This document shows positions 26,753-45,634 of a DNA stretch of 64,000 bases, piece by piece. Where the stretch lies: positions 1 to 64,000 of the IMG/VR virus record IMGVR_UViG_3300010368_000011. One strand, written 5' to 3'. A model generated the notes under the pieces. That model was not told the DNA's origin. It did not search any database and saw only the letters and a list, made by a program, of their open reading frames with translations. The translations under genes and the position numbers were made by a program. Every line of letters starts with the position of its first letter. Within the stretch, counting starts at the first letter, position 1. Origin of the DNA: a virus. Its lineage: Duplodnaviria; Heunggongvirae; Uroviricota; Caudoviricetes.

Positions 26753-27001
26753 ATGGTTGAACTAACAATTTGTTTAATTTCGGGTAAAGAAATTACGTTT
26801 TCGTTTGATGAAGACGGCATGGCACGCGATGCACTCGGTAGTATCGCTATGGTTGGCTTCTGTGCGAAGCACGAAAACGGTGAAAATCAGTTCGTTGCAG
26901 CGAATATGATTAAAAATATTCGCATGGGAAACCTAACGTTTCCAAAGACTTTGCTACCAACGACCGAAGAAATTATCACTCAAGCTGAATTAATTTCATA
27001 A
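26753..27001 (+). CDS. hypothetical protein (82 aa)
   Basis: ORF track. Confidence 0.5.
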   Translation: MVELTICLISGKEITFSFDEDGMARDALGSIAMVGFCAKHENGENQFVAANMIKNIRMGNLTFPKTLLPTTEEIITQAELIS

Positions 27002-27143
27002 TAGGGGTTGCAAACATTATCTGGAACCCCTAAGTATCTGTGTATGGGAGCTGCCAAGCTGTTCTGCCTCATGCGGGAGTTGTCCGAATAGGATAGTTCC
27101 CGCACCAATGCTCCGGTGATCTTAATAGGATTATCGGGGCACC

Positions 27144-27177
27144 AATGAAAGCCCTCGGTTAATAGCCGGGGGCTTTC
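27144..27177. repeat. 34-nt hairpin element AATGAAAGCCCTCGGTTAATAGCCGGGGGCTTTC (copy 1 of 2; copy 2 at 44703..44736)
   Basis: exact 34-nt identity between the two loci; 12-bp stem with 7-nt loop. Confidence 0.6.
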
Positions 27178-27192
27178 TCCATTTATGCTGTA

Positions 27193-27221
27193 TTGACAAC
27201 TGTTTTCGAATACAGTATACA
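27193..27221 (+). promoter_or_regulatory. sigma70-like promoter (TTGACA-17-TATACA) for Thg1-like gene
   Basis: hexamers and spacing. Confidence 0.5.
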
Positions 27222-27249: not shown

Positions 27250-28044
27250 ATGTCACCGGACCTTGGCAATCGTATGAAGAATTACGAAGCGTTTGAAACG
27301 TGTCGTAGAGTTGATGGTTCTCGTCCGGTGTATGTTCGGCTTGATGGTCGCTCCTTCTCCACCTTCACCAGTGGCATGACGAAGCCGTTCGATCAACGGA
27401 TGACCGAAGCCATGAATGAAACCACCAAGTACATGGTGCAAAAAACCAATTCCGTTATCGGTTATGTTCAATCAGATGAAATCAGTTTGATGATCACACC
27501 GACAACCGATACATCTCAATTGATGTTTGGTGGCAAAGTTCATAAAATGGTTAGCGTTTTTGCATCCATGGCCACGGCGAAACTCAACGCGTGTATTCGT
27601 GGGTGGGATGGGTATGAAGATCGCCTGCCCTGCTTTGACGCCCGTGTGATGAACCTGCCTGACCGTATGGAAGCGGTGAACATGCTTCGTTGGCGTTATA
27701 TGGATTGCACTCGTAATGCTATTCAATCAATCGCCCAGTCTATGTTCGATCATGGTGAACTACAGGGCATACAAACGGTTGATCTTATTGAGAAAATCCG
27801 AATGGCGGGTGTTGATCCATATTCATTCCCAAGTCGCAGCATGTATGGATCGTTCGTGCGTAGTGAAAAAGAATATAAATCATTAACGCCAGCTGAGTTG
27901 GCCCATATTCCAGAACACAAGCGCCCAACTGGTCCGTTTTTGCGTAGCGTGCTTAAGGTATACTCGACTGATATGTTTATACAACTGGTCAATCCGGTTG
28001 AAGTGATTTTTGATAATGCGGTTCCTATAATCAATAAAAGTTGA
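27250..28044 (+). CDS. Thg1-like protein (tRNA-His guanylyltransferase / 3'-5' nucleotidyltransferase family)
   Basis: N-terminal NYEAFE...VYVRLDGRSFSTF, GYVQSDEIS, FGGKVHKMVSVFASMATAKLN, CFDARV...LRWRYMDCTRNA track the conserved Thg1/TLP blocks; GAGGGA RBS. Confidence 0.7.
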   Translation: MSPDLGNRMKNYEAFETCRRVDGSRPVYVRLDGRSFSTFTSGMTKPFDQRMTEAMNETTKYMVQKTNSVIGYVQSDEISLMITPTTDTSQLMFGGKVHKMVSVFASMATAKLNACIRGWDGYEDRLPCFDARVMNLPDRMEAVNMLRWRYMDCTRNAIQSIAQSMFDHGELQGIQTVDLIEKIRMAGVDPYSFPSRSMYGSFVRSEKEYKSLTPAELAHIPEHKRPTGPFLRSVLKVYSTDMFIQLVNPVEVIFDNAVPIINKS

Positions 28045-28095: not shown

Positions 28096-28419
28096 ATGAC
28101 TGATACGTTTTGGACTGGTCGTCGTGCAGAAGACGTTGCTGTTGCTAATAGCTTCGTTCCGATTACTGGTGCGACCCCTGTTACCGTGGTTGAAGAGTTT
28201 CGGACTTTCCAAAATGCGTATTACCGTTTCTATAATGATGGTGATCTTCCCAACTATCGCGCGATGACCCGTTTGGGCAAGGTTGTTTCTGTGGAATATG
28301 ACACCAGCCGCCGCGAACAATCTCTTGAGAATATTGGTGATGCCCTTCTTACGCGTGTCCTGACCGCCAAGAAGAACGGCACCATTGATCAAATTCCAAC
28401 CACACCGTTGGCACAATGA
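28096..28419 (+). CDS. hypothetical protein (107 aa)
   Basis: ORF track; promoter-like TTGACA at 28041. Confidence 0.5.
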   Translation: MTDTFWTGRRAEDVAVANSFVPITGATPVTVVEEFRTFQNAYYRFYNDGDLPNYRAMTRLGKVVSVEYDTSRREQSLENIGDALLTRVLTAKKNGTIDQIPTTPLAQ

Positions 28420-28934
28420 AACCTGTTCCACAACTTTCGGCAGAAGATCAAGTACGGGTAATGCCGGAACCGTTTTATGTTGGTTCGCCTCATAGCACGA
28501 TGGTGATGTTCGTTCTTTCGACAGAAGGTGAATTCGCACCAATTTTGCGTGATGGTTGTCGTCGCTTGGGTCGGTTCATCTTGCCACCGTTTCAACGGCC
28601 ACCAGTATGGACACAGGCACAACAAATCGCGTTGCTTGAAAGTATTTGGTTGGAGTTGCCTATTGGTTCGTTTGTTTATAACGCAAGCAACGATATGGAT
28701 GACGAATGTGATCAGTGGCTTATCGATGGCCAGCAACGAATCACAGCACTTCTTGCTTATGTCGCTGATGCGTTTCCGGTGTTTGGTTATCGGTATTCTG
28801 AACTCAGTGTTGTTGAGAAGCGTGGATTTTCTATGAAATCATTTCCATGCATCGAAACAAAAGACCAAAATCGTTGCGATCTGGAAAACATCTATAACCG
28901 GTTGGCATATGGCGGAACCCCGCATTCTCAATGA
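28416..28934 (+). CDS. DUF262 / ParB-like nuclease-domain protein
   Basis: LPPFQRPPVW...IDGQQRITAL pattern; GC-richer block. Confidence 0.55.
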   Translation: MKPVPQLSAEDQVRVMPEPFYVGSPHSTMVMFVLSTEGEFAPILRDGCRRLGRFILPPFQRPPVWTQAQQIALLESIWLELPIGSFVYNASNDMDDECDQWLIDGQQRITALLAYVADAFPVFGYRYSELSVVEKRGFSMKSFPCIETKDQNRCDLENIYNRLAYGGTPHSQ

Positions 28935-31762: not shown

Positions 31763-31901
31763 ACCAAATTTAGACGGCCCAAGAGGTAGCGACAAACCAT
31801 GCTATCGGAAGTTCTGGGTGTACATCAGGTTCGGATTGTCCGATTAAGTCCGAAATAATGGTCTGAACATCAAAGGTGTCGTGGCCGTCTAAAACATTAT
31901 T

Positions 31902-32496: not shown

Positions 32497-32651
32497 CCAA
32501 GTTTGAGGCGGAAGTGTAAAAGAATCTTAATCGTGTCGATTGTACAAAGCACACGAGGTCCGGTTCCCAAGACATGATCATGTTGTTGGTATGATTGACC
32601 GTAACGAAGTCGGGTGAAAATCCCACCGTCTCAGCCAAAACGGAGTACCAT

Positions 32652-43679: not shown

Positions 43680-44700
43680 TACATATCCGCGAAGCCTGCT
43701 AAATATGTTCTCAACGAATGAGTGCTCTCGGTTTTACCGCCGCTGAGAAAAATAAAAAAAAGTGCAGTGACAGGGTTTACAGATCGAAAAAACCTGTTAT
43801 ATATACATCTTCATGACGCGGGGCCGCAAGCCGCCACGTTGTTACTAGAGGCCACGATGCTTCTAGATATATGTTATAATGAATGGGCGGTATAGCGTCC
43901 ATTAAGAATAAGTCGAGTAATCGACCCAAAGCAGGGGTTACATCTCTGCACCACCGTAAGGATGGCTCATCTATACAAGTCCAAGTCTGCCGGTAACGGT
44001 GTGTCTTCACAAAGGCACGAAGCAGTAAAAACAGGTTAATGAGATTCGAGGCCAACTGGTTAGAATCGTTCAAGGGTAGCTCCTTTGAGTAATTAACACA
44101 GCAACTGTTTGAATGTGAAGACTAATGGATAGTGATCTAGTATCTTCTTCGGGAGATATTATAGTCCGAACCTTAGCGGGACAGGGCGGGTCGCAATGTT
44201 AAAGGCATGGAGTTGGTGATGTAATAGTCATCAAATACGTGTTCTTGAAACATGGTTTAGTAGTCTTAGCGGGCGAAAAACAGGAGGCGTGTTGTATTTT
44301 GACTCTAACAAGGGTCGAAGCAACTGGATTAGCACGTCTTAGTAATTGCAAAGAAACCACTCCAAGGTAACAAAAAGCAAAGTCTAATCCATCGTTGTAT
44401 GAAAGGTGCTTAAAGCCTTACCCCTCGGGGAATAAGGTGCGCCGGAGGTCGCAAGCCGAAGGTGTTTGTTGGAGAAAGTTTCATAGCCATTTAGCGATGG
44501 TTAACTGTTGTAAAAGGCAGATGGGACAGAAACCAATGAGTAGTACAGCGTGATAGATGAAACGCCACATCTTAAAAAAGGCAGCACTGGTGGATACAGG
44601 AAGACCTTAACCGGCTCCTGTGGATGTGAAATTAACAAGCGGGTGCAACTGCTTGGTACGATTTGAAGGCCACTATTTTTGCCGCTAGTCTCACGGCGAA
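43680..44700. ncRNA. candidate large structured RNA (about 1 kb, ORF-free, GC-enriched, many GNRA/UUCG-type hairpins); strand undetermined
   Basis: no plausible ORF on either strand over ~1 kb in an otherwise gene-dense phage; local GC visibly higher than flanks; ends at repeated 34-nt hairpin 44703..44736. Confidence 0.4.
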
Positions 44701-44702
44701 CT

Positions 44703-44736
44703 AATGAAAGCCCTCGGTTAATAGCCGGGGGCTTTC
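44703..44736. repeat. 34-nt hairpin element, copy 2 (identical to 27144..27177); abuts the stop codon of 44735..45634
   Basis: exact repeat; 12-bp stem. Confidence 0.6.
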
Positions 44737-45634
44737 ACTGTTTGGGTTCATCATATTTCTTTCTGATGTATTCAATTATGTCAGCGGATTTTCGCAACCC
44801 TAATTTCTTACACAACACCGTGAACTCGTTGGACTTCATGTTCTTCTTGCGAGAATTATGAATGGTGGAATCAAGTGATCTAACATGATCACCAACGTGC
44901 CACGGATGATCTAGTATATTATTCTTAATTCGGCGCGCATCTTTCGATAGGGTGACATGTAATGGCGCTGATAATAATTCCACATATGGCTTCAGATAAT
45001 TCACAGTGATGCCATGATACCTATCACTCGTGTCTACCGATGAATCACTCTTAAGCCGTGATAGATCAGTCAGCGCTTTAGCTTTATTGCGACTATTATA
45101 TGCATCAGCATTATCATAAACCGACACGGGTATATTATTCTTCTTCGCGGCGATGATGATCTTACGTATTTTGGATTTCTGTTTTTCGGAACCGGTGTCC
45201 TGATTCTTGTCCATCTTGTCCAAGTTTGCGTACAGGTGAATTTCGGTTATATATTTTACGGCGTTAGGAATAGCAGGCTTGTCTGAGAAGATACGATCTT
45301 CTGATTCGAACTTATCAGGCCGCGTTGTGCGAAATGATGGACCCCAATAATCAATAGGCTTTCCGGTAAAACCGTCTGCCATCAGTTTTTGTCCATCCAG
45401 CACAACATATCCAGCACTACTGGCATGGCGAATATCACGCTCATAAAAGCCGGATAGGGTTCTGGTAGTTGATAGATAAAAGGGTTCACCGCCAGAAAAA
45501 TCATTTTCCGAACTGGTTCCCATATCACTGGTGAGAATGAATTGATTATCATCAAGGATCGATAGCATACTGAACACATCGGTTCGGTGGAACAATATAG
45601 AACTGATGCCTTCTAATAGTTGGTTAATTTTCAT
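44735..45634 (-). CDS. hypothetical protein (299 aa), member of MKI(N/Q)QL(L/F)E tandem paralogue family
   Basis: ORF track; N-terminus shared with 45631..46017 and 46022..46501. Confidence 0.55.
   Translation of the reverse strand: MKINQLLEGISSILFHRTDVFSMLSILDDNQFILTSDMGTSSENDFSGGEPFYLSTTRTLSGFYERDIRHASSAGYVVLDGQKLMADGFTGKPIDYWGPSFRTTRPDKFESEDRIFSDKPAIPNAVKYITEIHLYANLDKMDKNQDTGSEKQKSKIRKIIIAAKKNNIPVSVYDNADAYNSRNKAKALTDLSRLKSDSSVDTSDRYHGITVNYLKPYVELLSAPLHVTLSKDARRIKNNILDHPWHVGDHVRSLDSTIHNSRKKNMKSNEFTVLCKKLGLRKSADIIEYIRKKYDEPKQ

Follow-up and report, generated by a model that had tools for sequence, protein, structure and literature searches.

The stretch of DNA analysed here, referred to throughout as the window, comprises 64,000 nucleotides (positions 1 to 64,000 of the IMG/VR virus record IMGVR_UViG_3300010368_000011) and is part of the 317-kb genome of a tRNA-rich, T4-like myovirus. 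Between two of its plus-strand genes, an open reading frame (ORF) of 82 amino acids (aa) at 26753..27001 and a Thg1-like gene at 27250..28044, lies a block of hairpins that follows directly on the 82-aa ORF and is organized in a manner suggestive of a small-RNA gene. The product of the Thg1-like gene belongs to the tRNA-His guanylyltransferase / 3'-5' polymerase family (PF04446) and matches the tRNA-His guanylyltransferase of phage CcrColossus. An initial annotation of this DNA had described the block as two 35-nt tandem repeats followed by a separate 34-nt hairpin with a 12-bp stem. All of the sequences that it quoted are present, including the inverted repeat AGGGGTT/AACCCCT after the stop of the 82-aa ORF, and the repeats are indeed related units, but they recur with a period of 37 nt and number three rather than two; the 34-nt hairpin is present as well, not as a separate element but as the third unit of the same class, with 12 of 12 pairs, a 7-nt loop and the tail TCCA.

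Structure and conservation of the hairpin array

The three units follow one another on the plus strand with an exact 37-nt period, and each consists of a perfect 12-bp stem (12/12 positions paired, G-U pairs allowed), a 7-nt loop of the form NNAATAG, and an N-CCA tail; the tails read ACCA, ACCA and TCCA in order, and each is followed by two A/T bases. Unit 1 (27073..27107, hairpin 27073-27103) reads GCGGGAGTTGTC-CGAATAG-GATAGTTCCCGC, then ACCA, with the spacer AT at 27108-27109; unit 2 (27110..27144, hairpin 27110-27140) reads GCTCCGGTGATC-TTAATAG-GATTATCGGGGC, then ACCA, with the spacer AT at 27145-27146; and unit 3, extending over 27147..27187 (unit 27147-27181, hairpin 27147-27177), reads GAAAGCCCTCGG-TTAATAG-CCGGGGGCTTTC, then TCCA and TTTATG. 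Folded alone, they reach -21.1, -19.9 and -24.0 kcal/mol, respectively, with the ACCA of units 1 and 2 unpaired and the NCCA of unit 3 single-stranded; a covariance model of the unit, R1, scores unit 1 at 39.1 bits and unit 2 at 38.3 bits. The trailer CACCAATG, which had been thought conserved as a whole, is conserved only in its N-CCA part, a related phage described below keeping only ACCA.

About a dozen perfect 12-bp hairpins with 6-9-nt loops occur on the plus strand of the window, and the only three in the 64 kb, on either strand, that carry an NCCA tail are the units of the array; the frequency of the trinucleotide CCA in the window is 0.0166. The plus-strand RNA of the block forms the three hairpins at -75.1 kcal/mol (z = -7.1), and the minus strand folds to -51.2 kcal/mol (z = -3.2). 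The lower stability of the minus strand is due to the several G-U pairs of units 1 and 2, four of them in unit 1, which make that hairpin specific to the plus strand; read on the minus strand, both units form fewer than 11 of the 12 pairs. An 80-aa minus-strand ORF that crosses the block is absent from the relative, leaving the block without a conserved ORF. Three further independent assemblies carry the array without a single difference, together with the exact proteins, so that it is not an assembly artefact; short-read contigs break inside unit 3, as would be expected of a true two-copy repeat. The phage occurs in SRR5216425, SRR5216637 and ERZ27275018.

Two lineages related to the window phage were compared with it, lineage C (L104 and L125, which belong to one 335-kb jumbo-phage contig, IMGVR_UViG_3300031957_002643) and lineage B (L101-L103 and L116-L117). 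In lineage C, whose Thg1 is 52% identical to that of the window and whose small 81/82-aa ORF is 40% identical, a three-unit array occupies the same slot between these two genes, with 12-bp stems, 7-8-nt loops and ACCA after each unit. Its unit 1 reads GCTTGTGGTGAG-TGAAACAC-CTTGCCACAAGC, then ACCA; unit 2 reads CAACGGGATGAG-TGAGATAT-CTTGTCCCGTTG, then ACCA; and unit 3 reads GAAGCCCTCCGG-TTAATCG-CCGGGGGGCTTC, then ACCA-TTTTT. For units 1 and 2, no alignment of stems is possible between the window and lineage C, yet the 12-bp length and the ACCA are kept. When the six units are aligned, with the two 8-nt loops shortened by one base to keep the stems in register, 72 of 72 cells are paired and all 12 pairs vary on both sides, a result that none of 500 shuffles equals; slid registers of the same alignment are 43-53% paired. 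Covariation in relatives, another check that had been proposed, is therefore evident, and pairing remains perfect through 32 double-sided changes between the units of the two phages. Because the units were picked as hairpins, the independent evidence resides in their fixed length, the N-CCA and the synteny. N-CCA follows seven of the eight hairpin copies in the two genomes, the exception being a copy that follows a GOLLD RNA, to which we return below.

A promoter-like element precedes the array on the plus strand (27003..27036; -35 TTGCAA at 27008-27013, a 17-nt spacer, and -10 TAAGTA at 27031-27036) and lies inside the 7-bp inverted repeat AGGGGTT (27003-27009) / AACCCCT (27025-27031), the first hairpin of the initial annotation. 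All three lineages have the pattern TTGNNA-N17-19-TAtAtA just past the stop codon of the 81/82-aa ORF, the array promoter of lineage C reading TTGAAT-N17-TATATA. Judging from the spacing, transcription from the window element would start at about 27042, and the 5' leader of the proposed small RNA (27040..27072, plus strand) begins with GTGTATG, which also opens the RNA that the L101/L116 lineage carries in the same slot; in the relative L104 the corresponding start is GTGATCC. On the other side of the array, a promoter-like site for the downstream gene (27193..27221, plus strand; TTGACA-N17-TATACA) lies inside the inverted repeat CTGTATT/AATACAG, and TTGACA-N17-TATACT stands at the same place in lineage C, between unit 3 and Thg1.

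We note that three promoter-like sites of the window each fall within a 7-bp inverted repeat of their own that runs from the -35 to just before the -10 (27003-27031, 27188-27215 and 43771-43797, with AGGGGTT/AACCCCT, CTGTATT/AATACAG and ACAGGgTT/AAcCTGT, respectively). The promoters of non-coding RNAs (ncRNAs) in the window also have GGGTT(T/G)(A/C)CA, or GGGTTGCAA, in common around the -35. Conservation of this in the relative is lacking.

Homologues of the array proved to be scarce. Covariance model R1 finds no further units in the window, in lineage B, in 15 other Thg1-bearing IMG/VR contigs, or in two roseophages. A loop-tail-loop pattern gives four chance matches in the viral collection, none of them with hairpins, and the exact hairpin has no match there. 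The 82-aa ORF is similarly restricted: a profile search places its family in just three clusters among 5.8 billion proteins, and an alignment search returns the one relative as the sole match in viral contigs and nothing in metagenomes. A search of the viral collection with the single Thg1 protein gives no match, and no close relative of the window phage was found among GenBank phages.

The third hairpin at the 3' ends of other RNAs

The third hairpin is contained in the 34-nt string AATGAAAGCCCTCGGTTAATAGCCGGGGGCTTTC, which occurs as exact copies at 27144-27177 and 44703-44736; no third copy is found in the window at three or fewer mismatches, and 100 shuffles yield 0 matches. The initial annotation had noted this identical recurrence at the end of a 1-kb ncRNA candidate and had suggested an element shared by two RNAs. 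Both points hold, and the second RNA can now be named, as the candidate is a GOLLD RNA (RF02032). GOLLD is a giant cage-forming RNA. Its conserved 3' domain at 44284..44697 on the plus strand matches the full Rfam model (1-416/416) and scores 168.6 bits, above the gathering score of 150, and a likely promoter, read from the sequence as TTTACA-N16-TATATA, lies at ~43776-43803 on the same strand. The model ends 6 nt before the 34-nt string and 9 nt before the hairpin, and the second copy (44703..44736, hairpin 44706-44736, plus strand) is exact up to its tail, which is ACTG instead of NCCA. GOLLD RNAs are located in phage tRNA islands and sometimes contain tRNAs (PMC12286853). The window copy of the hairpin ends a bona fide GOLLD gene that likewise lies in a phage, beside tRNA genes; the hairpin lies outside the Rfam model and the array itself (27073-27181) has no similarity to GOLLD.

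The whole 335-kb contig of the relative contains exactly two copies of the hairpin core, as determined by a scan of the viral collection, both in the same orientation and each closing an ncRNA gene. One is in the array and the other, with an ATG prefix and an ACCA tail, is at 2156-2186 of L115, where it follows positions 1945-2155 of an RNA of ~250 nt that has its own promoter, ends in the hairpin and ACCA, and is followed by tRNA genes. This RNA resembles manA RNA (RF01745; 48.7 bits, E = 1e-11), with a score below the gathering score of 55.2, and is referred to here as manA-like. In each genome, then, the final unit of the array recurs as the closing element of another structured ncRNA gene, and the shared hairpin is identical within a genome and ~86% identical between the two. 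We also compared the 3' portions of the GOLLD and manA-like RNAs of the two phages and found no similarity beyond the hairpin. Elsewhere, searches with the hairpin core of metagenomes, viral contigs and 596 Gb of genomes recover the relative's two copies and otherwise a few ordinary terminators in unrelated contexts, at about the level expected by chance and with no hint as to the host.

A further observation concerns the bases that precede the hairpin, which read AC-T-A(A)TG at the copies outside the arrays (44698-44705; L115 2145-2155) and ACCAATG within the arrays. From the sequences, it looks as if the duplication of the hairpin once included the ACCA tail of the preceding unit.

The G+C core of unit 3 and of its copy measures 8 bp; an A-tract lies upstream of it, and the tail, TTTCTCCATTT or TTTCACTGTTT, is U-rich. 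In unrelated contigs this core, with clean T-runs behind it, is found as an ordinary terminator, and because of this unit 3 likely serves also as an intrinsic terminator. A peculiarity is that its U-tract is interrupted by CCA (UUUCUCCAUUU), the A- and U-tracts completing the 12-bp stem. A terminator scan of the region calls only a sub-hairpin, and the only Rfam alignments of unit 3 are with terminator hairpins, those of the Thr and His leaders, at values that are not significant (E 0.6-3).

In Phaeobacter phage MD18 (L145 2335-3428) and DSS3_MAL1 (L146 2501-3438), a tRNA-Arg is embedded within GOLLD, and a permuted tmRNA gene of the alphaproteobacterial type comes directly after it. The sequence GCCUC-ACCA-UGAAAGC after GOLLD in these two phages seemed homologous at first sight but was rejected, its ACCA being buried, according to the fold, in a long helix upstream of the annotated permuted tmRNA.

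Resemblance to tRNA acceptor ends and alternative explanations

A helix of 12 bp has the length of a 7-bp tRNA acceptor stem stacked on a 5-bp T stem, and the units resemble tRNA ends in several other respects. The helix is continuous over 12 bp (7 + 5) in all six units of the two phages, and a single-stranded N73-CCA follows, ACCA in five units and TCCA in one, with ACCA also on the extra copy in the relative; in single-unit folds these tails are all unpaired. Five of the six units have a G1-C72 closing pair, and five of six have T (U) at position -1, both of which are features of the pre-tRNA contexts favoured by RNase P. The flanks of real tRNA genes in these phages are much the same: in all 15 tRNA genes of the window (identified by ARAGORN and Rfam) an encoded ACCA or GCCA precedes an A/T-rich trailer, 12 of the genes having T at -1, and the tRNA genes checked in relatives encode N-CCA and an A/T trailer in 10 of 10 cases. 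Since the units share these flanks (mostly U at -1, G1-C72, N-CCA, A/T trailer) with phage tRNA genes, maturation of the tRNA type is the most likely route for them. The exact 12-bp stem, the N-CCA tail and the tRNA-gene-like flanks went unmentioned in the initial annotation, whose reading as a whole is therefore only partly supported; its suggestion of a small RNA gene gains weight from the upstream promoter-like site, the terminator-like last hairpin, the plus-strand structure, the compensatory changes, and the lack of a conserved ORF.

On balance, we consider it probable, from the sequence comparisons, that the block encodes tandem mimics of the tRNA acceptor/T-arm minihelix, expressed from a small-RNA gene and probably cut and trimmed as tRNAs are. 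The gene would be ~140 nt long, extend roughly over 27042-27185 on the plus strand, and be transcribed separately. Its transcript would be the equivalent of a polycistronic pre-tRNA with nothing but the acceptor/T arm left of each tRNA, and in which each unit presents a discriminator base with CCA, two A/T bases, and then the G+1 of the next unit. RNase P would cut at 27072|27073, 27109|27110 and 27146|27147, and 3' exonucleases would trim the 2-nt trailers to CCA, giving three ~35-nt hairpin RNAs with tRNA-like ends. As the A-tract/U-tract pair belongs to the stem of unit 3, termination would end close to the CCA. Unit 3 is in addition reused as a 3' end module of other phage ncRNA genes, that of GOLLD in the window and, in the relative, that of the manA-like RNA.

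In the laboratory, tRNA has classically been reduced to minihelices that end in CCA, which are also a popular model for the ancestor of tRNA. They serve as substrates of RNase P, the CCA-adding enzyme, some aminoacyl-tRNA synthetases and CCA-end toxins, and the phage units share with them the 12-bp helix, the loop of ~7 nt, and the discriminator base with CCA. The laboratory versions, however, are synthetic, are derived from real tRNAs and have true T-loops, whereas the phage units are genomically encoded, tandem and conserved, have loops unlike T-loops and match no phage tRNA. RNase P efficiently cleaves hairpins composed of acceptor stem, T stem and T loop, using the 12-bp stack as a ruler and pairing the 3' RCCA with its P15 loop, and among the natural substrates of the enzyme that are not tRNAs are the M3 and C4 RNAs of phages (PMC11143913).

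Several observations weigh against the units being minihelix mimics. The T-loop consensus UUCRANY is found in none of the loops (CGAAUAG, UUAAUAG, UGAAACAC, UGAGAUAU and UUAAUCG), the loops of the phage's own tRNAs being of the TTCGAAT type, and neither ARAGORN nor Rfam makes a tRNA (RF00005) call at 27000-27200, where no match appears even at E <= 10. Position 73 in unit 3 of the window is U and not a purine, and in four of the six array units U-1 could pair with A73, making a helix of 13 bp with CCA immediately after it. The lack of conservation of the unit 1 and unit 2 stem sequences between the phages makes it less likely that any single tRNA is being imitated. The hairpin copy after GOLLD has no CCA, a loss that we attribute to the overlap of its tail with the stop codon of a convergent 299-aa ORF (44735..45634, minus strand). 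The proposed -10 of the array, TAAGTA, is weak and is not called by a consensus scan. Finally, the array is present in only two lineages: covariance model R1 finds no units in the other Thg1 phages L118-L122, CcrColossus among them, and lineage B, with a Thg1 that is 56-57% identical, has in the slot a different structured RNA of ~260 nt with its own promoter and terminator. The place is thus a conserved slot for an ncRNA gene in which the array is not universal. As an observation on its own account, the slot RNA of lineage B (L101 5678-5945; L116 906-1170) is 78% identical between these two members, shows some compensatory changes and has no Rfam match.

Of the other explanations, the one to be taken most seriously, albeit unlikely, is that the block is a stack of terminators or insulators that ends the operon of the 82-aa ORF and shields the 3' end of its mRNA, in which case the CCA and the 12-bp length would be meaningless. 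The position of the block between two plus-strand transcription units would be natural for such a stack, the other terminators of the window are likewise long hairpins, and unit 3 has the G+C core, U-rich tail and weak similarity to Thr and His leader terminators described above. Units 1 and 2, however, have no U-tract and are followed by ACCAAUG, the helix measures 12 bp in six of six units, and a promoter-like site separates the ORF from the array slot in all three lineages. Terminators also give no reason for N-CCA to persist on seven of eight copies despite the complete replacement of the stems of units 1 and 2, when CCA is expected by chance at ~0.0166 per site. We find it very improbable that the hairpins are decayed tRNA genes or leftovers of duplication, consisting only of acceptor and T arms and now functionless; the genome is rich in tRNAs and the flanks are those of tRNA genes, but residual similarity to tRNA is undetectable, and neutral leftovers would lose the 12-bp pairing and the N-CCA, both of which are kept through the 32 double-sided changes in phages with proteins 40-52% identical.

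Equally little can be said for a cis-regulatory leader or attenuator of the Thg1-like gene, perhaps acting through a mini-ORF, ATG AAA GCC CTC GGT TAA (MKALG), that overlaps unit 3. In both phages the block directly precedes Thg1 and the mini-ORF stays in frame (MKALG, and MKPSG in the relative), and the weak matches to the Thr and His leader models might be taken to point the same way. Those matches are limited to the terminator stem and are not significant, though, and a good promoter (TTGACA-N17-TATACA or TATACT) separates unit 3 from Thg1 in both phages; moreover, the same hairpin follows GOLLD and the manA-like RNA with no same-strand gene beyond. The ATG of the mini-ORF has no Shine-Dalgarno sequence, and in view of this missing ribosome-binding site we judge the mini-ORF coincidental. 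Least probable of all is a dispersed palindrome, whether mobile or similar to repetitive extragenic palindromes (REPs), a set of protein sites in double-stranded DNA, or a set of RNase III sites. Exact reuse of 34 nt at two loci and the palindromic shape are what such elements would show, and a REP-like element was among the initial suggestions, but there are just two copies in the 64-kb window and two in the relative's 335-kb contig, all at ncRNA 3' ends, and the hairpin core is at chance level in the 596 Gb of genomes and in metagenomes. The stems diverge while loop and tail are kept, and the G-U pairs work only in plus-strand RNA, which is the opposite of what is expected of a DNA operator. 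RNase III needs about two helical turns (~20 bp) of double-stranded RNA. By this established length criterion RNase III sites are unlikely, because the stems of 12-14 bp fall below that length and are shorter than known substrates.

Several known systems share features with the proposed minihelix gene. The plant mitochondrial "t-elements" are tRNA-like 3'-end processing elements, and T4 species 1 and 2 are stable RNAs encoded in a tRNA cluster and belong to the phage small RNAs on which RNase P acts. The closest parallel to the hairpin behind GOLLD is mascRNA of MALAT1, a tRNA-like fold right behind a long ncRNA, where RNase P cleavage forms the 3' end of the ncRNA (PMC8457004); mascRNA is, however, a eukaryotic cloverleaf, whereas the phage element is a bare hairpin that resembles a bacterial terminator and lacks CCA in its GOLLD copy. 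The M3 RNA of phi80 and the C4 antisense RNA of P1/P7 are small, stable, non-tRNA phage RNAs tied to the tRNA-processing machinery (PMC11143913), but no description of these, or of T4 species 1 and 2, speaks of CCA-tailed 12-bp hairpins in tandem. Intrinsic terminators agree with unit 3 and its second copy in the G+C-rich stem, the A-tract, the U-rich tail and the location at a gene 3' end; they differ in that CCA interrupts the U-tract, and units 1 and 2 have the same architecture with no U-tract at all. Full-text literature searches did not find a comparable phage minihelix or tRNA-like acceptor mimic. We therefore regard the array as a variant of the tRNA-like small RNAs and RNase P hairpin substrates that stands outside the tRNA family, and no earlier description of such a gene seems to exist; if the reading is correct, this would be, as far as we could find, the first natural, conserved gene to encode tandem CCA minihelices.

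As to function, the RNAs could be competitors, decoys or substrate mimics for proteins that read only the acceptor end of tRNA, and at the 3' ends of ncRNAs the hairpin could act as an exonuclease-resistant, tRNA-like cap. If RNase P cut at the hairpin after GOLLD, the 3' end of GOLLD would arise much as that of MALAT1 does at mascRNA. FaRel2, a CCA-targeting toxSAS toxin, pyrophosphorylates a synthetic tRNA-Gly minihelix, which is a good substrate, with G1-C72, C2-G71, G4-C69 and R5-Y68 as determinants, and the authors of that work link the toxSAS class to antiphage immunity (PMC11559606). All four of these acceptor-stem pairs are present in unit 1 (GCGGGAG/UUCCCGC). Because proteins that read the acceptor end accept minihelices, a role as decoy or competitor is possible by analogy. 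The full proposal, in which abundant 35-nt CCA hairpins would be decoys for acceptor-end defence enzymes and so spare the tRNAs, beside 5'-end repair by the Thg1-like enzyme, and in which RNase P would set the 3' ends of the GOLLD and manA-like RNAs, is a speculation that we rate as quite improbable in its entirety. Its conceivable targets include enzymes such as CapRel/FaRel2-type toxSAS pyrophosphokinases, MenT/AbiEii nucleotidyltransferases, acetyltransferase toxins and acceptor-end nucleases. The surroundings of the array in the phage are given over to tRNAs and their repair, with the Thg1-like gene here and RNA ligases in the relative. If it is expressed, it opens the questions of whether phages counter acceptor-end defences by RNA decoys and not by replacement tRNAs, and of how the 3' ends of GOLLD RNAs are made.

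Neighbouring genes and tRNA-associated RNAs

Pfam scans of 30 window proteins identify a tail sheath, a gp15-like protein, a cell-wall hydrolase, a peptide deformylase and a GmrSD_N domain, and no CCA-adding enzyme or RNase among these proteins. The GmrSD_N (DUF262) domain protein is encoded at 28416-28934, two genes 3' of Thg1, and is kept in the relatives. The nearest GOLLD sequences are those of roseophages, so that the window phage may have an alphaproteobacterial host.

The tRNA-His gene of the phage (32652-32725) has A73 and T at -1 and encodes no G-1, as would be expected if G-1 has to be added by the Thg1-like enzyme of the phage itself. Elsewhere among the tRNA genes, the spacer between tRNA-Phe and tRNA-Asp (31767-31901) matches no Rfam family and has an 11-bp long-range closing stem (UUAGACGGCC / GGCCGUCUAA) and a fold z of -3.0. 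A stretch of ~135 nt between tRNA-Arg and tRNA-His (32503-32640) may be another tRNA-like RNA, one called by neither ARAGORN nor Rfam: its two ends are complementary (UUGAGGCGG / CCGUCUCAG), CCA comes after them, and it contains a T-arm-like GGG-UGAAAAU-CCC together with a long inserted hairpin, with a fold z of only -1.2.

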